IMG/VR virus record: IMGVR_UViG_3300025418_001062
Source: an uncultured virus (IMG/VR IMGVR_UViG_3300025418_001062)
Taxonomy: Duplodnaviria; Heunggongvirae; Uroviricota; Caudoviricetes
Length of the DNA: 64,000 nucleotides
Direction: 5' to 3' (one strand)
Below are positions 1,259-53,050 of this stretch, in pieces (positions within the stretch are counted from its first letter, which is position 1; every line of letters begins with the position of its first letter). The translations under genes and the position numbers were made by a program. The notes under the pieces are model-generated. The model saw nothing but the letters and a program-made list of their open reading frames with translations, had not been told where the DNA came from and made no database searches.

Positions 1259-1798
1259 ATGACTACGCAACCACAACCAAAATCGGGGCGGCCCTACGGA
1301 GCCCGTGAACTCATTTCCCTCCTTGCAAAAAAATGGGCGGAAGATTACCTTGCTGCGGATGAAGCGGCCATTGCAGCGACGATTAGGGCCCGTCTACAGC
1401 ATTCTAGAGTAACACCTGAAGACGTAGCCAAAGTAAATAACAGTGAAAGGATTGACATGAGCAAGTACAAGTCAAACGTGGAGTATATTGCAACTTGGGG
1501 GGAATCGCTGTTGAAGAGCCCCCACAACACCTCAACGCCTCGGGAAAAAAATTCGGGGGCAGACTCAGCCTTCTTTCACCTGACTCGAGACTTCTCTGAA
1601 AAGGTCTTTGAAGAGTTTACCCAGGGTACAGCATTCAACGTCTCCTTTGCCAATAACAAGGGACTGCGAGAATTGACGTCGGTAGAGATTCAGGGACTAG
1701 AGGGACTTCCGGGCGACACCGTAGTGCGATACAACGGCACATTCGCAATCCTGAAGAAGACTCACCAGGTTTGGAAACACAAGAACGAACTCCCATGA
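1259..1798 (+). CDS. Hypothetical protein, probably leaderless or near-leaderless
   Basis: 179 aa ORF; TGgTATAAT ends 8 nt before the ATG, no RBS. Confidence 0.7.
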   Translation: MTTQPQPKSGRPYGARELISLLAKKWAEDYLAADEAAIAATIRARLQHSRVTPEDVAKVNNSERIDMSKYKSNVEYIATWGESLLKSPHNTSTPREKNSGADSAFFHLTRDFSEKVFEEFTQGTAFNVSFANNKGLRELTSVEIQGLEGLPGDTVVRYNGTFAILKKTHQVWKHKNELP

Positions 1799-1870
1799 CA
1801 GTAGCAGTAGTAACATTTATAGTGATACTAGGAATGATTTGGTTCTCTGAACCGCATCCACACAAGTGAG

Positions 1871-1909
1871 AAATCCCCCGCCCGGCGAGTGCTAGGTGGG
1901 GGATTTTTT
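1871..1909 (+). terminator. Intrinsic terminator, possibly bidirectional
   Basis: AAATCCCCC...GGGGGATTT stem followed by T run, between convergent units. Confidence 0.7.
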
Positions 1910-2047
1910 ATTGAACACGTGTTTTTTTATGTACCGTTTTTTGCAAAATTTTTCAACGGCTATGGCTGGGGTAGTTAAATAGTTTGTTTTGTTTATTTAA
2001 TTTATGGGGGGCCACAATAAACTAATACAGCATTTTGTATTATCAAT

Positions 2048-2229
2048 TGGCTGGCAGACTAGGACTCGAACCTAGAACGGAGGAACCAGTCTGCTCTGGG
2101 GCCTCGGGTCGAACGAGGGCTAGGAGTTTCAAAGACTCCGGTGCTACCTTTACACTACCCCAGATTGTTTAGGTGTTTGCGAATTGCGTTATCCGAAACT
2201 CCCCAGTGTTGCCATTACACCATCTGCCA
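2048..2229 (-). tRNA. Split/interrupted Gln-type tRNA (5' half ~2229-2198, 3' half ~2089-2048) with a ~108-nt insert in the anticodon loop
   Basis: Acceptor TGGCAGA/TCTGCCA+G+CCA, D arm GTGT/ACAC, anticodon stem GGGGA/TCCTC, T arm CTAGG-TTCGAGT-CCTAG. Confidence 0.8.
2094..2164 (-). tRNA. tRNA-Gln(UUG), nested inside the split tRNA
   Basis: TCTGGGG/CCCCAGA acceptor, GGAGT-CTTTGAA-ACTCC anticodon arm, CCTCG-TTCGACC-CGAGG T arm. Confidence 0.92.
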
Positions 2230-2230
2230 C

Positions 2231-2316
2231 TGGTCGATGGGGAGGGATTCGAACCCCCGAACTCTATTGAGGTCTGGTTTACAGCCAGAAGCGTTTGGCC
2301 ACTTCGCTACCCATCG
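2231..2316 (-). tRNA. tRNA-Tyr(GUA) with long variable arm and C1-G72
   Basis: CGATGGG/CCCATCG+A+CCA; TCTGG-CTGTAAA-CCAGA; TTCGAAT T loop. Confidence 0.93.
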
Positions 2317-2323
2317 ATATTAG

Positions 2324-2395
2324 TGGCGGGGGTGGGATTTGCACCCACGACCTTCGGGACATGAACCCGCTGCTCTACTGCTGCGCTACCCCGCT
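2324..2395 (-). tRNA. tRNA-Met(CAU), initiator-like, somewhat divergent
   Basis: 1:72 mismatch (A/C), GGG/CCC anticodon stem, loop TTCATGT, T loop TGCAAAT. Confidence 0.8.
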
Positions 2396-2401
2396 TTGAA
2401 T

Positions 2402-2430
2402 AGTATAGCACACGCGGTACTACTTGTCAA
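2402..2430 (-). promoter_or_regulatory. Strong promoter for the Met-Tyr-Gln tRNA cluster
   Basis: TTGACA-N17-TATACT with TGn, 6 nt upstream of tRNA-Met. Confidence 0.85.
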
Positions 2431-2433
2431 ACC

Positions 2434-2577
2434 TCATTCTGCAAATCTTCGGATTTCCTCAAAGATGTGATAGATAAGAAGGGCTTGGTGAATCGGCGCC
2501 TCCATGTATTGCAAGGAGATGATGGCGTTCTCTTCTAGCCGGTTTACCTGCTCGAGAAATTCTTCCCGGTCAATCAT
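2434..2577 (-). CDS. Small hypothetical protein (47 aa, MIDREEFLEQ...)
   Basis: ATGA overlap with the kinase stop; translated by hand. Confidence 0.55.
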   Translation of the reverse strand: MIDREEFLEQVNRLEENAIISLQYMEAPIHQALLIYHIFEEIRRFAE

Positions 2578-3128
2578 CCCCAGCCGCCGATAATTTCACC
2601 GATGGTCCGCAGGGCATCTTCTGGCGTGCCGTCGTTGGTAATTGAGTAGTCCCAGTCGTTTTCTAGCAACGTCTCGCTTTGGTGCCCGTTGACGGGACCC
2701 AAGCCGGTGCGCGTAACTTGGATAATGCTACCGCTCCGGTCGCGAATAGCCTTTGCCTCATTAGGGAACCTAACGTCGGGGATTACAATGCGGTCAGTTT
2801 TTGCGTTCTTGAAAAGTGTCTCGACCCAGATTTCTTCCCCCAAAAATTTGCGCCCGCCCTCGGTGCCAAAGCGTTGAAGAAGTTCACGAATCTCTGCGTA
2901 CTCGACCTTTGCCTGGTCCCAGCCAAGCGTGTCTACAAGTTGTTGCAAGCGCGTGACTTCCCTAAACTTCTCTTCGTAAAAAAGAACAATGATTGGGTTG
3001 GTAGCGTACAGCATGTTACGCATAGCATCGGCAAAAGCAATGCACTCAAATCCGTGGTTTTTAACCATGAGTTGAGCAATTGTTGTTTTACCGCTACGAG
3101 CGTAACCGGACAGTCCTATAATTTCCAT
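2574..3128 (-). CDS. Deoxynucleoside monophosphate kinase
   Basis: IIGLSGYARSGKTT P-loop, RELLQRFGTE, IPDVRFPNE, HQSE motifs. Confidence 0.9.
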   Translation of the reverse strand: MEIIGLSGYARSGKTTIAQLMVKNHGFECIAFADAMRNMLYATNPIIVLFYEEKFREVTRLQQLVDTLGWDQAKVEYAEIRELLQRFGTEGGRKFLGEEIWVETLFKNAKTDRIVIPDVRFPNEAKAIRDRSGSIIQVTRTGLGPVNGHQSETLLENDWDYSITNDGTPEDALRTIGEIIGGWG

Positions 3129-3204
3129 GGTGCCCCCGGACGGATTCGAACCGCCGACTCCCACGTTACAAGGGTGGTACTCTGGCCATCTGAGTTACAA
3201 GGGC
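3128..3204 (-). tRNA. tRNA-Thr(UGU)
   Basis: GCCCTTG/CGGGGGC+A+CCA; loop CTTGTAA; TTCGAAT T loop. Confidence 0.9.
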
Positions 3205-3209
3205 GGGCG

Positions 3210-3282
3210 TTGGTCAGGTGGGAGTCGAACCCACACAAAACGGGATAGAAGCCCGTGGCACTATCCTTTATGCTACTGACCA
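3210..3282 (-). tRNA. tRNA-Arg(UCU)
   Basis: TGGTCAG/CTGACCA; ACGGG-CTTCTAT-CCCGT; GTGGG-TTCGACT-CCCAC; no encoded CCA. Confidence 0.9.
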
Positions 3283-3287
3283 AAAGT

Positions 3288-3359
3288 CTCCGGGGGCAGG
3301 GGTCGAACCTGCGACATACCGATTAACAGTCGGTTGTTCTGCCACTGAACTACCCCGGA
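3288..3359 (-). tRNA. tRNA-Asn(GUU)
   Basis: TCCGGGG/CCCCGGA+G; ACCGA-CTGTTAA-TCGGT; GCAGG-TTCGACC-CCTGC. Confidence 0.93.
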
Positions 3360-3365
3360 AAACCC

Positions 3366-3650
3366 TTAGCGAAGGTGCTTAGCGGGAGCAGTCTTCTTGA
3401 CGGGCGCCTTGGCCTTTGCAACTGCCTTGACAGGAGCAGGCGTTGGTGCGGGAATCAAAGCAGTCAACTTTGTTTCCAGTGTTTGCAATTCGGTGAGAAC
3501 GTTGTCGAACTCAGCCTCAATGTGTGTGATGTACGCAGTGAACTTGGTGTCTTCAGCCTTGGCAGTCTTGATTGCATAAGCAATGAAGCCAACGGCAGAA
3601 GCAACCCACGAAGTGCCAACTGCGGTGAAAATGTTAGCGGATGCCGACAT
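3366..3650 (-). CDS. Membrane-anchored coiled-coil protein with Ala/Lys/Pro-rich tail
   Basis: AGGAAGGA RBS; N-terminal hydrophobic helix; PVKAVAKAKAPVKK C-terminus. Confidence 0.7.
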   Translation of the reverse strand: MSASANIFTAVGTSWVASAVGFIAYAIKTAKAEDTKFTAYITHIEAEFDNVLTELQTLETKLTALIPAPTPAPVKAVAKAKAPVKKTAPAKHLR

Positions 3651-3691
3651 GGTTTTCCTTCCTCTTAAACCCCACGTATGTGGTGCTTTCC

Positions 3692-3721
3692 ATTGTAGCA
3701 CAAAAATGAAAACCCTGTCAA
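3692..3721 (-). promoter_or_regulatory. Promoter of the leftward tRNA/kinase operon
   Basis: TTGACA-N18-TACAAT with TGn. Confidence 0.7.
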
Positions 3722-3750
3722 CCTTTTCAACCATGTCAAGTTTTGGGCAT

Positions 3751-3801
3751 TTATTTAATACTAATATTAGTATATATACCCCTCCTCACTGGTGAGGACC
3801 C
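3751..3801 (-). repeat. Inverted copy of the replication-initiator iteron plus AT-rich tract
   Basis: Reverse complement of 3779-3800 = GGTCCTCACCAGTGAGGAGGGG, identical to 49559-49580; similar AT-rich flank. Confidence 0.9.
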
Positions 3802-3828
3802 CAAAGTTTCAAGGAAATTGCCAAATGG

Positions 3829-3857
3829 TTGACATAAAACCCTGTAAATGATAGGGT
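3829..3857 (+). promoter_or_regulatory. Rightward promoter, leaderless start at 3865
   Basis: TTGACA-N17-TAGGGT, ATG 7 nt later; overlapped by AAAACCCT/AGGGTTTT inverted repeat. Confidence 0.7.
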
Positions 3858-3864
3858 TTTGCCC

Positions 3865-4236
3865 ATGAGCGAAAACAGCAAAAACAGGTATCTTGTTCTT
3901 GCTCACATTGACAACGAAAAATTGACATATCGAGACGTAGTGGTACCAGATATTGTACCACTCTACGTAAACACCGAAGAACGAAAACACATAGGTTCCG
4001 CGCATTTGCGCAAAAGAGGCAAGCGCATCTATGCTCTCATTGAGATGACCGATAGCGTTTTAAATTTTGGGCCGGCCCCGTCAATTGCCCTCAGTCTCAA
4101 AAGCAAAAAACCGGTAATTGAAAACAACGTGTCCTACATTGACGAAGGTGTGGTACTATGTGCATACATCGTAAACCACGATGCGTGGGAATCTTTATAC
4201 GGGAACACAGAGGACAAGTATGTTGAATTGGATTAG
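3865..4236 (+). CDS. Hypothetical protein
   Basis: ORF directly after the promoter. Confidence 0.65.
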   Translation: MSENSKNRYLVLAHIDNEKLTYRDVVVPDIVPLYVNTEERKHIGSAHLRKRGKRIYALIEMTDSVLNFGPAPSIALSLKSKKPVIENNVSYIDEGVVLCAYIVNHDAWESLYGNTEDKYVELD

Positions 4237-43982: not shown

Positions 43983-44236
43983 AGCGAAACAAAGAGCCTT
44001 CTCAGTCAAGCATAGAATACGCAAAGCGTAGCAATCTATACCTTAGCAAAGAAGAAAAATTGCTCTGGGTGCCCTGCATTGTTTGCGGGGACCTGTGCCC
44101 TCAGCAACTTGAGGGCGCTTTTGCCGCTTTTGATGAGGTGCATATGTGTTGCACAATGGAACCTGAATACCCCAAGCGGGTCAAAGAATTAGAAAAACAA
44201 CGCCAAGAAGTAGAAGCGCCCTCTTCACTCTTTTGA
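43979..44236 (+). CDS. Small Cys-containing hypothetical protein
   Basis: CIVC...HMCC; ATGA overlap. Confidence 0.55.
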   Translation: MKRNKEPSQSSIEYAKRSNLYLSKEEKLLWVPCIVCGDLCPQQLEGAFAAFDEVHMCCTMEPEYPKRVKELEKQRQEVEAPSSLF

Positions 44237-44554
44237 TTCTAGGCTTAGCCATGCTTCCTCTACGCTAATGTTGGCTTGAATTAATTTCGTGCGCTCTTCT
44301 GGCGTGCTTCCGCCCCAAACCCCGTCTTCGGTTTGTGTGTTCATTGCGTATTCAAAGCATTCGTACTGGACAGGACAAAACCTGCATGTATTTATTGCCT
44401 TTTTAATGACCGAGGACTTGCCCCGACCGGGAAAAAAGTTTGCAATTCCTTGGTTCTTACAAGCCGCGTAGTTGTAAAAATCTGGGCGCGCATCAGCAAG
44501 AGTGTTGATGAACTGATAGATTTCAAACTCGGTAAAATTAAACTCCGGTAGCAT
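44225..44554 (-). CDS. whiB: WhiB-family transcription factor
   Basis: AAC..FFP...CRFCPVQYEC..GVWGG...ER. Confidence 0.9.
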   Translation of the reverse strand: MLPEFNFTEFEIYQFINTLADARPDFYNYAACKNQGIANFFPGRGKSSVIKKAINTCRFCPVQYECFEYAMNTQTEDGVWGGSTPEERTKLIQANISVEEAWLSLESKE

Positions 44555-44705
44555 TGGCACCGAATGATTCCGAGATGTGGAGATGGCCCGCTGAATGGGC
44601 CAGGGAGCGCGTCTTATACTTTCCGCTCCAATGGCATGAGCAAACAGTGTTGTACGTGCCCTTCTCAAAAACCACTTCTACGATGTGCTTTTTTACTTTT
44701 CCCAT
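44538..44705 (-). CDS. Small C2H2-like zinc-finger protein (55 aa)
   Basis: MGKVKKHIVE...CSCHW...AHSAGHLH; translated by hand. Confidence 0.5.
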   Translation of the reverse strand: MGKVKKHIVEVVFEKGTYNTVCSCHWSGKYKTRSLAHSAGHLHISESFGANATGV

Positions 44706-46046: not shown

Positions 46047-46733
46047 TTACTGAAGTGATTGTAGGTGTTCGATGACCTTCTTGGCCTCGTCAAAGGTCAA
46101 CTTGGTAAGGTCACTAATTTCACGCCCGATGACTTCTGACACGGTAGCGAACTGCTGTGCGTCGTCAAAGTTAAGCGTCTTGTGGCAGATGGCCCAAATC
46201 ATGCGGGTCATCTTCTCGGTAGCCATACCCGAAGCCTTGGCTGGCGCTGGCTGTCCGGCTGCACTTGCAACCTTAGAGTCAAGCGACTGCTTTGGTGGAG
46301 CAGACTGAGCGGGCTTTACAAAAGCCTTCTGAACATCAGCGGCAAACGTAGCGGCGTTGCCGTCGTCGTCATTGTCTGCAACCAAACCGAGCGCCGCCAT
46401 GTAACTGTAACGACGAGCGTAGGTAATGGCGCTACCCTGTGATTGTGGGTCATTAGACTTAGCAACGTGAAGTCGCATTGAGTGACTAATGAACTCACCC
46501 GATGAGTGAAGCAAATACGTGGTGAGTAAGTCACCGAGGTCGTCAGAGTCAACGAACTGAGCGACAGACAAACCATTCTTAGACAACACTGGTGTCGCCG
46601 TGGCAACTACGTCCGGCAATGCGGCGTACTTGCTCTTGAAGAACGGGTTGTCCGCTCCCTTGGGTACTGCTGAAAACTCCCCTTGCGCAGCGGCAAGAGC
46701 AACTGCAAGATTCTTGATTGAATCACTCTTCAT
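46047..46733 (-). CDS. ERF-family single-strand annealing protein
   Basis: NPFFKSKYA.L, QGSAITYARRY, DDDGN. Confidence 0.92.
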   Translation of the reverse strand: MKSDSIKNLAVALAAAQGEFSAVPKGADNPFFKSKYAALPDVVATATPVLSKNGLSVAQFVDSDDLGDLLTTYLLHSSGEFISHSMRLHVAKSNDPQSQGSAITYARRYSYMAALGLVADNDDDGNAATFAADVQKAFVKPAQSAPPKQSLDSKVASAAGQPAPAKASGMATEKMTRMIWAICHKTLNFDDAQQFATVSEVIGREISDLTKLTFDEAKKVIEHLQSLQ

Positions 46734-46761
46734 TTACATTCCTTTCTTTAGAGGTGTAACC

Positions 46762-46790
46762 ACTATACCATACGAACTTGAACGTGTCAA
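46762..46790 (-). promoter_or_regulatory. Promoter for erf-ssb genes
   Basis: TTGACA-N17-TATAGT; -35 lies within GAACTTGA-N5-TCAAGTTC inverted repeat. Confidence 0.8.
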
Positions 46791-46795
46791 GTTCA

Positions 46796-47830
46796 TTATT
46801 TAGAATTAATCCGAAGAGTGCGTGCACCGGGACGAACCTTTTTGAACCGTTCCCAGATTTCGGGTGCTTCCTTCTTGATTCGGTCTGCGTCAAGGCTTTC
46901 AACTTCCTTGCCGGCCTTGTAGGTAAGCAGCACGGTCCCGTTGTACTTGGCTGATTCGGCATCGCCTACCAATTCAACAATCTGTGCGCGCAGAGCCTTG
47001 CGCTTAGCGTCGGCGGCATCTGCTTCTTCCTTAGCGGCCTCAAACTCGGCAATCAAAGCGAGAAGGTCTACCTCTGCTTCAACAAACTTGCCTTCTTCGT
47101 GGCGAGGATAACGCTGACGTTGTGCGGCTTCGGTCGCCTCGCTACCGTCTGTAGGTGGCGCGGTCTTTGTTACGACCTGCTCCCAAAACTCCGCCTCGGC
47201 AATAATAAGGTTGTCGGCAATGTTCTGGTTCCATTCCATCTCACGAACCTGCAAGCCCTGACCACCAATAAGCGCCGCAAACGTAATCTTTGGCACTTCA
47301 TGGAAACCAGCCACGATACCGTAGTGGTACCCCTGCAACATGTAACTCTCGGGAATGTTGTTGTACGCCCATGCACCGGGATTACCGGGGCTAGCAATAC
47401 CAGCGGTCTTGACTTCAAGAATGCCTTCAACGTTGGGCGGGGGCGTAGCAAAGCGCCACGTCTGAACTGTGCCGGCAGGGAATTCCTCGCTGGGCTCCAC
47501 AATCAAGAAGTCAAGGTTGGCAAACATGAACTCACGCCCCTCTTCGAGCGAACGAAGAATGACGGGCCACTCAACTACAGCCTTGTTGTGCTTACGTGCA
47601 TAGTGAGCCGCAATAGGACGCTCGAGGTCGTGACCCCAATCAGTCGCATCGTTACCACTAAATTCAGTGGGCATGATGCCGGTCTTCTCGCCCCACAATG
47701 CGTAGGCTGACTTGTACTTGTTTACGCCGACAATAGTGCCTGCGTCTGAGCCACCGATTCCGCCCTTGCGAGCCTCGAGCCACTCATCATTGCTCATATC
47801 CCATACGGGGATTACTTCTACTTTGTTCAC
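46796..47830 (-). CDS. YqaJ-like (lambda-exonuclease family) nuclease
   Basis: WLEARK.GIGGSD, WGHDLE, ANLD, LEVKT. Confidence 0.92.
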   Translation of the reverse strand: MNKVEVIPVWDMSNDEWLEARKGGIGGSDAGTIVGVNKYKSAYALWGEKTGIMPTEFSGNDATDWGHDLERPIAAHYARKHNKAVVEWPVILRSLEEGREFMFANLDFLIVEPSEEFPAGTVQTWRFATPPPNVEGILEVKTAGIASPGNPGAWAYNNIPESYMLQGYHYGIVAGFHEVPKITFAALIGGQGLQVREMEWNQNIADNLIIAEAEFWEQVVTKTAPPTDGSEATEAAQRQRYPRHEEGKFVEAEVDLLALIAEFEAAKEEADAADAKRKALRAQIVELVGDAESAKYNGTVLLTYKAGKEVESLDADRIKKEAPEIWERFKKVRPGARTLRINSK

Positions 47831-48051
47831 TCTGTTCCTTTCAGTTTGATGGACCTTGCCACCTTTTCGTTTAATTCAATTACATTTGTTTCTTTTAATT
47901 CCTTGCACACGTTGAACACGGTGCCAAGAGAAATGCCCGTAATGCGGGAAATGTCTCGGTAACTCGGTCCGTACGTATGTCCAATATACCACATCTTGAT
48001 TGCTTCCGCAACTCGAACTTGATTGTTTTTTTGTGCGTTCTTCTCACTCAT
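47827..48051 (-). CDS. Stand-alone LexA-like DNA-binding domain
   Basis: GPSYRDI...G.S..TV....L.....I......RSIKL; no peptidase domain. Confidence 0.75.
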   Translation of the reverse strand: MSEKNAQKNNQVRVAEAIKMWYIGHTYGPSYRDISRITGISLGTVFNVCKELKETNVIELNEKVARSIKLKGTE

Positions 48052-49063
48052 CGTTTTCGTCCAGTGCCTTAGTGACGTTGATTAGTGCTAATACACGCTG
48101 GTACAACTCTTCGTACAACGCTGGGTCGGACTCAATCTTTGCCTTAGCCTTTGCACGCCCGTTTGCAAACTGCTCGCCATCGTAGTAAATCCAAGCGCCA
48201 CGAGACTGCAACACGCCTACATCGGTGGCGCAGTCAATCAACGCGTTAGCCTTTGGGACGCCAACGCCGTACTCAAGGTCAAACTCTGCAACACGATACG
48301 GTGCGGCAATCTTGTTCTTGACAACCTTGACCTTTGTGCGGTTAGCCGTTGCTTCGTCGCCCTTAGTGATGGTCTTGATTCGTCGAATGTCCAAGCGAAC
48401 TGATGCGTAGTAAGGCAACGCCTTGCCGCCTGGGGTGTATTCAGACGGCCCGTACATCTTGCCAATTGACTCTCGCAACTGATTGATAAAGATAACCAGT
48501 GTGTTGTTGTCAAACGCGGGACCGGCCAACTTGCGCAACGCCTTACCCATAAGGCGAGCCTGAAGGCCGACGTTGGCATCGCCCATTTCGCCCTCAAGTT
48601 CGGCGCGGGGGGTCAAAGCGGCAACGGAGTCCACCACAATTACGGAAACCATTCCGGTCTCTGCAAGGCGAATAGTAATCTCCAAGCCTTCCTCGGCAGT
48701 GCTGGGCTGAGACAAAAGCAATTCGTCTAAGTTCACACCAAGAGCCTTGGCATACACAGGGTCAATAGCGTGCTCAGCGTCAATGTACGCACACACTTTG
48801 CCCTGCTTCTGCGCTTCTGCAATTGAGTGCATCGCCAGCGTTGATTTGCCTGATGAGGGCGGCCCGTAGAACTCAACGATTCGGCCCAGCGGAAGACCGC
48901 CAGCGCCCAGCGCCATGTCCAACGGAAGCACGCCAGTAGAAATAACTTCTACGGGTGAAACCTTGTCGTTACTCAGTCGTACAATAGACCCTTCACCAAA
49001 GTCTTTGTCAATTTGTGCCATAACTGCGTCTAAAATAGAGGCAGTATCTGTCTTTTTTGCCAT
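48044..49063 (-). CDS. recA: RecA recombinase
   Basis: GPPSSGKST, IDAEHA, VVDSVAAL, QARLM, INQLR, GGKAL.YYASVRL. Confidence 0.98.
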   Translation of the reverse strand: MAKKTDTASILDAVMAQIDKDFGEGSIVRLSNDKVSPVEVISTGVLPLDMALGAGGLPLGRIVEFYGPPSSGKSTLAMHSIAEAQKQGKVCAYIDAEHAIDPVYAKALGVNLDELLLSQPSTAEEGLEITIRLAETGMVSVIVVDSVAALTPRAELEGEMGDANVGLQARLMGKALRKLAGPAFDNNTLVIFINQLRESIGKMYGPSEYTPGGKALPYYASVRLDIRRIKTITKGDEATANRTKVKVVKNKIAAPYRVAEFDLEYGVGVPKANALIDCATDVGVLQSRGAWIYYDGEQFANGRAKAKAKIESDPALYEELYQRVLALINVTKALDENDE

Positions 49064-49087
49064 TAGCAACCCTTCTTTCGTCTCTCA

Positions 49088-52385: not shown

Positions 52386-52589
52386 ATGGAAATAACGTTT
52401 GAACAATGGTACAAGATTGGTATGGAGAAGGGGTTTTGCAGTGAGCAGTTTTGCATGACCCACGATGCCTACCCTTTGCATGAATCCGAAGAGCGTGCTT
52501 GGGACGAGGGCCTAGACCCCTGCGCCCACATGGTGCGACTTGGAAACGTCGAAGACTGGGAACTGCCAGAAGATTGGTTTTCTATCTAA
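52386..52589 (+). CDS. Small hypothetical protein
   Basis: AGAAAGGA RBS; CMTHD...PCAH. Confidence 0.7.
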   Translation: MEITFEQWYKIGMEKGFCSEQFCMTHDAYPLHESEERAWDEGLDPCAHMVRLGNVEDWELPEDWFSI

Positions 52590-53050
52590 TGGAACCAATT
52601 CGCAACTATGAATGGGCAGACGATGCCGCTTGTCGAAACAGCGGGCTTGATTTCTTTGCAGAAGAGCCGTCAGAAGAATGCTACGAACTTTGTGATGTTT
52701 GCCCCGTAAAGGAGCAGTGTTTAAAGCAAGCAATGCAGTACGAGCATTACGGATTTTGGGCGGGCACAACAGAACGAGAGCGATACGCAAAGCGTCGTGC
52801 GCTTGGCATTTCTCAGCCGTTTTTTGACCGTACAATCAATAAGCAGTTGCAGAAAGAGCGCCGTGCTCAAAAGCGAGGAGACCTTGTTTCGGACGTTCCC
52901 ATTGCTCACGGCACTGAGAAGGGCTACATCCTTCACAACAAGCGGCTTGAGCCAATGTGTGACCCATGTAAGGCCGCACATCGTGAATACATTGCCGAAT
53001 ACCGACGCAAGAAAAAGGCCGAAGAGGCAGAAAAGAAATTGAAGGCATGA
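52589..53050 (+). CDS. whiB: WhiB-family transcription factor with C-terminal HGT..Y..H..C..C zinc domain
   Basis: W...AAC..FF...CDVCPVKEQC..GFWAG...ER. Confidence 0.9.
   Translation: MEPIRNYEWADDAACRNSGLDFFAEEPSEECYELCDVCPVKEQCLKQAMQYEHYGFWAGTTERERYAKRRALGISQPFFDRTINKQLQKERRAQKRGDLVSDVPIAHGTEKGYILHNKRLEPMCDPCKAAHREYIAEYRRKKKAEEAEKKLKA

Follow-up and report, generated by a model that had tools for sequence, protein, structure and literature searches.

The window examined here is the whole 64,000-nt stretch of DNA of an uncultured virus of the Caudoviricetes (IMG/VR IMGVR_UViG_3300025418_001062). On its minus strand, the upstream end of a run of tRNA genes (Met, Tyr, Gln) adjoins a candidate promoter at 2402..2430 (TTGACA, 17 nt, TATACT, with TG), which is promoter-like by consensus match only (11 of 12 positions; the sole match within 1800-2600, shuffled sequences giving a mean of 0.9). 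The next genes are a tRNA-Met(CAU) (2323-2395) and a tRNA-Tyr(GUA) (2231-2316), both called by ARAGORN and scoring 51.3 and 56.9 bits in Rfam. The CCA of the tRNA-Tyr (2233-2231) is separated by one base from a nested structure, 2229-2048, in which two cloverleaf-competent halves of a tRNA-Gln gene enclose a complete tRNA-Gln(UUG) at 2164-2093. At locus L013 the same tRNA-Tyr is followed by an uninterrupted tRNA-Gln of the outer type.

Read along the minus strand, the nest begins with a 30-nt 5' part of the outer tRNA-Gln (2200..2229), which holds the 7-nt acceptor 5' strand, the D arm and the 5' strand of the anticodon stem (GGGGA). Its final four nucleotides, GGGA (2203-2200), are common to it and the next element and mark a deletion junction. 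This next element, 39 nt at 2165..2203, is a relic of a predicted HNH homing-endonuclease gene; it stands directly before the inner tRNA and its reading frame continues to a TAG at 2157-2155, within that tRNA. The initial annotation had described the stretch 2199-2165, which lies inside the relic, as an A-rich leader; it does lie between the two halves, as was stated, but it is the tail of the HNH gene and not merely a leader. The inner tRNA-Gln(UUG) (2093..2164) was called by ARAGORN and scored 53.7 bits with the Rfam tRNA model; its CCA is not encoded and it has U1-A72 and G73, which we take to be Gln identity marks. Between it and the resumed outer gene lies AGAC (2089..2092), the tail of the cassette and its right junction. 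The 41-nt 3' part of the outer gene (2048..2088) starts with anticodon bases 35-36, continues with bases 37-38 and the 3' strand of the anticodon stem and, past the variable region and a 5-bp T arm, ends in the complementary 7-nt acceptor strand with G73 and CCA. In the window the outer halves are perfect, with a 7-bp acceptor stem, D and T arms and a paired anticodon stem. The ARAGORN and Rfam calls for the inner gene and the reading of the outer halves agree with the initial annotation, in which a complete tRNA-Gln(UUG) was placed inside the anticodon loop of a split tRNA-Gln.

Our own half-finder detected exactly this one pair of halves in window 1501-4000, and on 80 other loci it gave 35 matches versus 1 on reversed-sequence controls. 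An ARAGORN run that permitted introns (0-200 and 0-3000 nt, at a relaxed score), a check that had been recommended, did not call the outer tRNA, and no half-tRNA or intron match was obtained at the nest with Rfam at E <= 1. When the outer halves of the window were joined in silico at the junctions suggested earlier, ARAGORN recognised Gln(CUG), Glu(UUC) or Gln(UUG), in agreement with the ambiguity of the junction pointed out there. In the minimum free energy fold of the 182 nt the inner cloverleaf forms and the outer acceptor stem reaches only 4 bp; the energy was no better than that of shuffled sequences (z = -1.18; 28 of 200 shuffles fold equally well). The ARAGORN intron run and the predicted fold would count against a neat nested fold, the z-score itself being uninformative either way. 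The 8-nt complementarity of GGAGTTTC in the outer half to the inner anticodon arm, also claimed before, is present in the window and absent from the second cassette subtype.

The relic can be compared with a matched full-length copy, in which both junctions are defined to the base. This is the metagenome locus L141, in which a third tRNA-Gln allele carries a full cassette, consisting of a 225-aa HNH ORF and the same tRNA-Gln, between its anticodon positions 34 and 35 and has lost none of the outer bases. Window 2203-2086 is identical to the 3' end of the L141 cassette in 118 of 118 nt; the former leader matches the end of the intact HNH ORF in 39 of 39 nt, and tblastn aligned window 2202-2158 with the last 15 residues of that ORF at 100% (E 2e-4). 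Compared with the HNH ORF of L035, the leader matched in 26 of 35 nt, a score reached by none of 2000 shuffles. The window is without 684 nt of the L141-type cassette, which is almost the whole HNH gene, and the break falls at GGGA, a microhomology that the outer anticodon stem shares with the Gly-Val codons of the ORF. Through this deletion the outer loop bases 32-34 are gone and ORF sequence stands in their place; the GT and TTC that had been taken for outer anticodon-loop bases are actually sequence of the HNH gene tail.

In related lake phages a resident tRNA-Gln(UUG) gene is interrupted, between its positions 34 and 35, by an HNH gene and a directly adjoining, overlapping tRNA-Gln(UUG). 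In L141 and in L035/L148 the outer 5' half is followed, after about 60 nt, by a 225-aa HNH-motif ORF and then by the inner tRNA and the outer 3' part. The full 225-aa ORFs of L141 and L035, whose proteins are 64% identical, scored 21.9 bits with Pfam PF01844 (cut-off 21.4) and below the model's own cut-off with PF13392; the window keeps only the last 15 codons of the ORF. Relatives of the ORF are numerous: 604 were confirmed by tblastn in IMG/VR, and 217 were found in phage records, many of them annotated as HNH endonuclease. Of 80 homologue loci, 71 have a tRNA at most 400 nt away, and in 32 a tRNA on the same strand starts, on our own count, between -60 and +15 nt relative to the ORF end. 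Judged from this distribution, the family resides in tRNA clusters. A strict search for intact tRNA halves flanking the homologues returned 2 of the 80 loci and none in the control; these were L035 and L107, in the latter of which a member of the family lies inside a group I intron of a tRNA. The nest is accordingly a rare state in this HNH family. At L035 the nested tRNA is a tRNA-Asn, with a mixed T stem around it, i.e. with chimeric tRNA flanks. A TCGAA motif was observed at the left junction of the cassette in L141, L148 and Enterococcus phage 113; the motif is present in 31 of the 80 loci and in 21 of 80 segments taken as background, a comparison confounded by the T loops of upstream tRNAs. 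Enterococcus phage 113 (MZ147816.1), a cultured phage, has a tRNA that is split by an HNH gene but accompanied by no spare, and no ribozyme match was obtained there.

An interruption of the anticodon loop by an element whose flanking exons restore a tRNA on joining was found both in L141 (34/35) and, by the in-silico joins, in the window. No match to Rfam Intron_gpI at E <= 1 was detected in window 1500-3800, L141, L148 or L035, and the positive controls of the same run were found (L094, 65.5 bits; L107, 34.4 bits); the insert is not a group I intron, as had been maintained from the start. Among the proteins encoded in the window are RecA, ERF and an exonuclease of the YqaJ type. None of its 88 ORFs matched RNA ligase, polynucleotide kinase or RtcB, in accordance with the initial annotation as far as the ligase is concerned, and no gene of a splicing endonuclease or ligase was found in the window.

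On this evidence the nest is very probably the DNA footprint of a homing-endonuclease cassette, a decayed one of a type that could be called "break one, bring a spare", and the nesting of one tRNA in another is most likely a scar in the DNA rather than a novel mode of RNA splicing. The following course of events is proposed. A unit of an HNH gene and a tRNA-Gln(UUG) would have been inserted between positions 34 and 35 of the resident tRNA-Gln(UUG), the halves of which would serve as homology arms for copying the cassette into cassette-free alleles cut by the nuclease. The damage to the resident gene would be offset by the spare tRNA of the same isoacceptor type and not by splicing. The HNH gene would then have been almost wholly deleted at the GGGA microhomology, so that the 39-nt ORF tail, the spare tRNA and the outer halves remain. 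The inner tRNA may be transcribed from the promoter-like site upstream of tRNA-Met, matured by host RNase P and 3' processing, and serve as the tRNA-Gln of the phage, the outer halves being presumably by-products without a function of their own.

The outer gene is also known in its uninterrupted state. It was found as an uninterrupted tRNA-Gln(UUG) in 12 of the 13 IMG/VR loci retrieved by the 5' half, and of 19 loci with a second outer allele, 15 had the gene uninterrupted, three had it nested with a relic and one with an HNH gene; since the searches used exact patterns, the contigs come mostly from a few lake campaigns and the IMG/VR and metagenome copies overlap, these locus counts do not represent independent events. 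The 24-nt 5' half (window 2229-2206) and a 24-nt part of the T arm and acceptor stem occur together, identically, in the 12 uninterrupted genes, thus the outer halves are not a chance resemblance. The closest empty site is that of a further relative, L008, whose flanks on both sides are about 79% identical. The cassette is therefore polymorphic for presence and absence at the same site among relatives. No allele free of the cassette turned up in the backbone of the window itself, where a scan with the downstream flank matched only the L002 contig. The DNA contigs that skip the insert do not reflect splicing; they belong to uninterrupted alleles of other phages. When 1900-2500 was compared by blastn with 50,697 phage records, the output was limited to five generic tRNA hits, none of them from a relative; in G001, the nearest record, nothing matched the nest, a region which that record may not span.

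The nest is carried by three further contigs of the same phage (L002, L136 and L145; 98.7-99.4% identity over 1.1-2 kb). The strains of this phage show all four combinations of a left SNP with two right flanks, as recombinants do, and in two of the four strains (L002, L145) the outer anticodon stem contains a G-G mismatch. Of the cassette, 13 distinct versions were compared: the outer 3' remnant is present in all 13, its sequence and length varying widely, and the outer 5' half is absent in five. Two HNH-bearing types have an anticodon stem that does not pair; in the L014/L148 and L017 types the sequence that replaces the 5' strand of this stem pairs at 0 of 5 positions with the 3' strand, and the L016 type has lost the 3' strand. 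The T stem is broken in two of the 13 types (L014 and L019, pairing 3/5); the T hairpin is intact in the other 11, including four types without the 5' half. A split or spliced tRNA would keep its halves, with paired stems, wherever it is interrupted, and this is not what the types display. By comparison of the types, the outer gene is not maintained. The perfect outer halves of the window fit a young scar, and selection would give the same picture.

That the T hairpin persists in types devoid of the 5' half might indicate a function for it. Without being ligated, the outer halves might pair into a gapped structure that resembles a tRNA and diverts an anticodon nuclease of the host, or the 3' T hairpin might serve as an element for the processing or stability of the inner tRNA; the persistence of the 3' remnant after the inner tRNA in every type and the encoded CCA retained by the outer gene speak for such a use. 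However, the remnant is highly variable in sequence and length, the 3' strand of the acceptor is left without a partner where the 5' half has been lost, and retention would also be expected from young insertions and from use of the halves as homology arms. We give this possibility a small chance of being right.

In the initial annotation the inner tRNA was proposed to act as an intron: RNase P and 3' processing would free it from a single transcript, the leader would be trimmed and the halves would be ligated, or they would persist as a nicked tRNA or decoy. Ligation would be the work of a host RtcB or another ligase and would give a second working tRNA-Gln, reading CUG or UUG. The window's halves are indeed intact and valid for ARAGORN when joined in silico, precise removal of the L141 cassette from its place between 34 and 35 would restore a normal UUG loop, and group I introns occupy this position in other phage tRNAs (L094, L107). 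Against this stand the types with a missing 5' half (5/13) or an unpaired or deleted anticodon stem (L014/L148, L017, L016), the mismatched outer stem in half of the strains of the window's own phage, the replacement of loop bases 32-34 by ORF sequence, the lack of a match to ligase, kinase or RtcB in the window and the weak support of the fold for the outer acceptor stem. Moreover, the intact outer alleles all read UUG, the same as the inner tRNA; the proposed CUG isoacceptor is not supported, and a rejoined copy of the same isoacceptor adds nothing obvious. Since relatives have uninterrupted or decayed outer halves, the very outcome that the annotation had itself named as speaking against its proposal, the splicing reading is unsupported and we regard it as very improbable. 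RNA-level fates of the outer halves seem, from these comparisons, unlikely in general.

The mobility of the cassette can be inferred from its distribution only. The remaining approximately 2 kb of L141 aligns to the window only at tRNA genes, and the 118-nt identity within these otherwise unalignable loci points to a mobile unit that would move between different phages; the same element was thus found in otherwise unrelated backgrounds. The right junction, AGAC followed by TGG, is identical beside three different outer 3' flanks, those of window/L136, L002/L145 and L141. These observations bear on an origin without any homing element, by illegitimate recombination or duplication between adjacent tRNA-Gln genes with an HNH-like leader being incidental. 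The phage has its own recombination proteins, and chimeric tRNA flanks such as those of the tRNA-Asn nest at L035 do exist; however, the leader is identical throughout to the terminal stretch of the HNH ORF that stands, intact, at this place in L141, the same unit recurs in two unalignable loci and one junction stands beside three flanks. This explanation, already disfavoured, is scarcely credible. An artefact, i.e. a contig made chimeric from reads of two tRNA-Gln genes, is a practically negligible risk: although tRNA genes are repeats able to confuse metagenome assemblers and uninterrupted alleles co-occur in the same samples, the nest is present in four independent contigs of the phage (the window, L002, L136, L145), run X10 has an independent Logan contig of 653 nt that bridges 2030-2500, and the tiling contigs of X5 reproduce 2050-2284 with 0 differences, so the misassembly that the initial annotation had named as a refutation did not occur.

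In contrast to the outer gene, the inner tRNA is maintained. Three variants of its anticodon stem occur among the relatives, each pairing at 5 of 5 positions, and between the window type and the L018 type three of the five pairs are changed on both sides, i.e. in a compensatory manner. It is the sole tRNA-Gln found by ARAGORN in the window and is presumed to be the working tRNA-Gln(UUG) gene of the phage. Its first 22 nt had 0 matches in 185,579 species genomes, hence no lead to a host or donor was obtained.

Within the interpretation as a decayed homing cassette we lean, by a little, towards a more specific reading. According to this the cassette compensates for its own damage: it would break the resident tRNA-Gln at the anticodon and deliver a spare that is resistant to the nuclease, the window holding a degenerated copy. 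Its HNH gene may have come from a group I intron, in which the ribozyme would have been swapped for a tRNA. The stop codon of the HNH ORF lies inside the spare tRNA, so maturation by RNase P would sever the stop from the nuclease mRNA, and the severed stop could couple the output of tRNA to the shut-off of the nuclease.

Several known systems share features with this locus. Group I introns with homing-endonuclease ORFs interrupt the anticodon loops of bacterial tRNA-Leu and tRNA-fMet. The insertion into the anticodon loop is alike, and L107 has the same order of an HNH ORF of the same family, an RNA module and the 3' exon; however, the cassette is without a ribozyme core, a complete tRNA stands in the place of the ribozyme, and function would be restored by replacement and not by splicing. 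In the Aeromonas phage Aeh1 the nrdA gene is split by mobE, a case of the "fractured genes" whose pieces still yield a working product. There, too, insertion of a homing-endonuclease gene leaves two separate gene pieces, whereas in the present case the comparative evidence suggests that the pieces are not maintained and that the spare gene does the work. Archaea have split as well as intron-bearing tRNA genes (the halves of Nanoarchaeum, the bulge-helix-bulge introns), and the halves described here could likewise pair through the acceptor stem and are interrupted at the anticodon loop, but they belong to a bacterial virus and are not conserved across relatives. Temperate phages and islands integrate into tRNA genes, carrying a copy of the 3' end of the tRNA. 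In both situations mobile DNA enters a tRNA gene and supplies sequence that keeps the tRNA working; the integrating elements do this with an integrase and a 3' end only, while in the present case an entire additional tRNA gene is supplied and the resident one is left disrupted.

In the literature searched, no description was found of a cassette of an HNH gene and a spare tRNA that splits a tRNA of the same type. To our knowledge, homing endonucleases are thought to persist inside genes only by means of self-splicing introns and inteins, and otherwise to be intergenic. If the proposed reading is true, it would represent a third lifestyle of homing endonucleases within a gene of essential type, beside introns/inteins and free-standing intergenic genes. 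Such a cassette would explain the reshuffling of phage tRNA clusters and the abundance of tRNA fragments in them. For annotation the lesson would be that two good tRNA halves around a tRNA should be recognised as a scar rather than taken for a novel splicing pathway.

Among known systems, SegB of phage T4 comes closest. SegB of T4 and T6 is a free-standing GIY-YIG homing endonuclease encoded in a tRNA gene cluster, and the likeness to the present case lies in a nuclease gene among phage tRNA genes (PMC2330249; PMC13096335). The target recognised by SegB is tRNA gene sequence, and SegB takes adjacent tRNA genes along when it spreads into related phages; microhomology of the 3' end of the nuclease gene with a tRNA promotes truncation of the nuclease gene (PMC2330249; PMC13096335). 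The two differ in the nuclease, which is GIY-YIG in SegB and a predicted HNH nuclease here, and in its position: SegB lies between tRNA genes, whereas the present cassette lies inside one, is flanked by the two halves of that gene and brings along a spare tRNA of the same isoacceptor type. A further difference is that the window has only a 39-nt relic of the nuclease gene, and with this it would add the end stage of the life cycle, in which the nuclease gene is lost and the spare tRNA is kept.

On the minus strand, a promoter-like site (TTGACA-17 nt-TATACT, 2430-2402) precedes tRNA-Met (2395-2323), which is followed by tRNA-Tyr (2316-2231), and the nest begins one base past the CCA of the latter. 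It consists of the 30-nt 5' part of the outer tRNA (2229-2200), a 35-nt stretch (2199-2165), the complete inner tRNA-Gln(UUG) (2164-2093; called by ARAGORN, 53.7 bits with Rfam), the four bases AGAC (2092-2089) and the 41-nt 3' part of the outer tRNA, ending with G73 and CCA (2088-2048), all on the minus strand. The layout described in the initial annotation was correct to the base, and the three joins of the outer halves that it discussed, made in silico, are called by ARAGORN as Gln(CUG), Glu(UUC) and Gln(UUG). The misassembly considered beforehand can be set aside, since independent Logan contigs also cover the nest: a 653-nt contig of sequencing run X10 covers 2030-2500, and tiling contigs of run X5 pass over the nest with no differences. 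It is also present in the loci L002, L136 and L145, which belong to the window's own phage (98.7-99.4% identity over 1.1-2 kb). The window itself is a piece of a tailed-phage genome, encoding terminase, portal, capsid and tail proteins and a DnaB helicase, and its DNA was found in freshwater and lake metagenomes. Two WhiB-type regulator genes (44228-44668, 52499-53047) suggest an actinobacterial host.

The first 22 nt of the inner tRNA were found in 8 IMG/VR and 16 metagenome loci, two overlapping sets as several contigs occur in both, and these loci represent 13 distinct sequence types, the window included. In three types (L014/L148 (= L035); L017/L140/L142/L143; L141) a 225-aa ORF lies directly 5' of the inner tRNA, with its stop codon inside the tRNA. 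The ORF product has an HNH nuclease motif (Pfam HNH 21.9 bits, cut-off 21.4), after which come Cys-rich and helix-turn-helix-like parts. A tRNA-Gln 5' half is located about 60 nt upstream of the ORF, and the matching outer 3' part stands directly after the inner tRNA. The window is identical to L141 at all 118 nt of 2203-2086, which span the terminal 39 nt of the ORF, the inner tRNA, AGAC and three further bases; according to tblastn, the final 15 residues of the L141 protein are encoded at 2202-2158. Thus the 35-nt stretch, interpreted earlier as 2 nt of the outer loop and a 33-nt A-rich leader, is the tail of a deleted nuclease gene, and the GT/TTC assigned to the outer anticodon loop belongs to the same ORF tail. 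In the window 684 nt of the L141 cassette are missing; the deletion junction is a GGGA common to the outer anticodon stem and the Gly-Val codons of the ORF, and no second copy of the ORF sequence was found by tblastn elsewhere in the 64 kb. L035, whose protein is 64% identical to that of L141, is a more distant subtype and matches the leader at 26/35 nt, a score reached by none of 2000 shuffles.

The outer halves are a real gene, broken recently. Thirteen IMG/VR loci share the outer 24-nt 5' half in an exact scan, and in 12 of them it continues through a UUG anticodon arm into the window's T arm and acceptor strand, as an uninterrupted tRNA-Gln(UUG); only L002 has the nest. The uninterrupted gene of L013 is preceded by the same tRNA-Tyr as in the window, and L008 provides an empty site, matching the window at about 79% on either side of the gene. 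In L141 the 5' stem strand and loop bases 32-34 of the outer gene are followed by the cassette and then by anticodon bases 35-36, so the cassette sits between positions 34 and 35 with no bases lost. The right junction (AGAC, then TGG) is identical beside three different outer 3' flanks, those of the window/L136, L002/L145 and L141; the acceptor stem of the L141 outer gene also differs from the window's, and L141 and the window do not align outside the cassette and the tRNA genes. Such an identical unit in different phages, beside different alleles, would be expected from a mobile cassette for which the tRNA halves serve as homology arms. Among the four contigs of the window phage, a C/T difference on the left is combined with two right-hand flanks in each of the four possible ways, which indicates recombination within about 110 bp. 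RecA, ERF, a YqaJ-type exonuclease and SSB are grouped in a single block of the window (46050-49069), and this full recombination kit fits the recombinant tRNA flanks. TCGAA(C) marks the point where the outer 5' half meets the cassette (left junction) in L141 (~281-286), L148/L035 (~2381-2386) and L150 (~1104-1109), three elements whose nucleases share only 38-64% identity. The motif is similar to that of the T loop and to the SegB cleavage motif described in PMC13096335; it occurred in 31/80 loci against 21/80 background segments, a comparison confounded by the T loops of upstream tRNAs.

In the relatives the outer halves are either uninterrupted or decayed, and the covarying, preserved halves proposed as a test were not what the comparison revealed. 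The 3' remnant is found in 13/13 types, while the 5' half is missing in 5/13 within the sequence available. The five bases that replace the 5' stem strand in the L014/L148 and L017 types pair 0/5 with the 3' strand, and comparison with L118, an uninterrupted allele of the same backbone, indicates the loss of positions 27-38. The L016 type has lost the 3' strand of the outer anticodon stem, L014 and L019 have broken outer T stems (3/5 pairs), and a G-G mismatch is present in the outer anticodon stem of the two window-phage contigs that carry the second flank. The uninterrupted alleles keep 4-5/5 stem pairs despite varied sequences. In the inner anticodon stem 3/5 pairs are changed on both sides between types, with pairing always kept; the inner gene is the sole tRNA-Gln in the window and shares its anticodon with all intact outer alleles. 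The comparative evidence says that the outer gene is apparently no longer used. The simplest account of these sequences is replacement, in which the cassette breaks one tRNA-Gln gene and provides another. The outer 3' remnant follows the inner tRNA-Gln in all types, even in those lacking the 5' half, e.g. L018, L134, L135 and L144; this persistence, like the intact T hairpin of most types, may be due either to the young age of the nests or to a use made of the hairpin.

The initial annotation had proposed that RNase P would excise the inner tRNA as an intron, or that the outer halves would act as a nicked tRNA or a decoy; these proposals are unsupported, the outer gene being decayed in relatives. 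A role of the outer halves as RNA without ligation is improbable, and one observation keeps it alive: the T hairpin of the 3' remnant is intact in 11/13 types. In the MFE fold, which is no better than shuffles, the inner cloverleaf and the outer D hairpin are formed, but the outer acceptor stem has just 4 bp. The 8-nt complementarity pointed out before is present between the HNH relic (2199-2192) and the 3' side of the inner anticodon arm (2128-2121, both minus strand); it is missing from the L035/L148 subtype and unused in the window's MFE fold. Ligation of the outer halves is more doubtful still. As noticed already, no RNA ligase could be recognised, and the RNA ligase, polynucleotide kinase and RtcB families had no match among the 88 window ORFs of at least 70 aa; a host enzyme is conceivable. 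The exclusion of a group I intron also held, since Rfam found no group I core in the window, L141, L148 or L035. The same run detected such introns in other phage tRNAs with anticodon-loop inserts, namely L094 (3107-3378, minus; 202-nt intron, 65.5 bits, HNH gene adjoining) and L107 (2340-3247; 836-nt insert with HNH ORF and group I core, 34.4 bits). Anticodon-loop inserts of an unclassified kind were seen in phage tRNA genes of L105 (2912-3131; 128 nt) and L083 (362-489; ~35 nt).

In IMG/VR 604 relatives of the nuclease were confirmed by tblastn, and 217 records of cultured phages contain relatives; the gene of Citrobacter phage Maleficent stops 2 nt short of a tRNA-Leu within a long tRNA run. 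One member of the family, that of L107, is housed in the 836-nt group I intron of a tRNA. A tRNA occurs in the retrieved sequence of 76 of the best 80 loci and no more than 400 nt from the ORF in 71; in 32 (own count) the start of a same-strand tRNA falls from -60 to +15 nt relative to where the ORF ends. Intact flanking tRNA halves were found by a strict test in 2/80 homologue loci (control 0). Thus the nucleases form a tRNA-cluster family in which the nest is one of the less common states. Since the last codons of the ORF, stop included, overlap the 5' end of the tRNA that follows (L141 1000-1008, L035 3098-3112), RNase P cleavage at the tRNA would take the stop codon off the nuclease mRNA.

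A member of the same family (38% identity), annotated as an HNH CDS, interrupts a tRNA (U1-A72, G73) in the cultured Schiekvirus Enterococcus phage 113 (MZ147816.1; ~130.5-131.4 kb = L150 1074-1898). With introns allowed, ARAGORN calls a 743-nt insert there; neither a group I match nor a spare tRNA was found between the halves, so this is either a dead gene or a case of unexplained rejoining. L035 contains a second nest (2110-2261), a complete tRNA-Asn(GUU) (2154-2226) flanked by a 5' piece of 23 nt (acceptor and D arm) and the 3' piece of another tRNA-Asn, whose T stem is a chimera of two alleles intact in L016 and L019 with the pairing lost; no nuclease relic is visible in its 22-nt leader. 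Beside phage tRNA clusters a tmRNA (L107 4294-4699, 109.5 bits), a ROOL RNA (L150 2708-3057, 170 bits, cut by the locus end) and a YrlA-like match (L105 1517-1651, 54.8 bits, under the threshold of 69) were also observed.

The locus is therefore very probably a homing-endonuclease cassette that has decayed and that includes a spare tRNA-Gln; the window holds its end stage and L141 provides the intact reference. A nest of nuclease and spare tRNA was not found described in the full-text literature outside subscription journals. With intron-borne nucleases the cassette shares position and ORF family, but the core that defines a group I intron was not found in it. The closest described system is SegB of T4/T6, a free-standing GIY-YIG homing endonuclease in a tRNA cluster, which recognises a tRNA T-arm motif and carries adjacent tRNA genes into related phages (PMC2330249); the 3' end of T6 SegB is truncated via microhomology with a tRNA (PMC13096335). 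The present cassette would act similarly, but it employs a different nuclease family, lies inside a tRNA gene of which both halves are kept, and brings a spare tRNA of the same isoacceptor.
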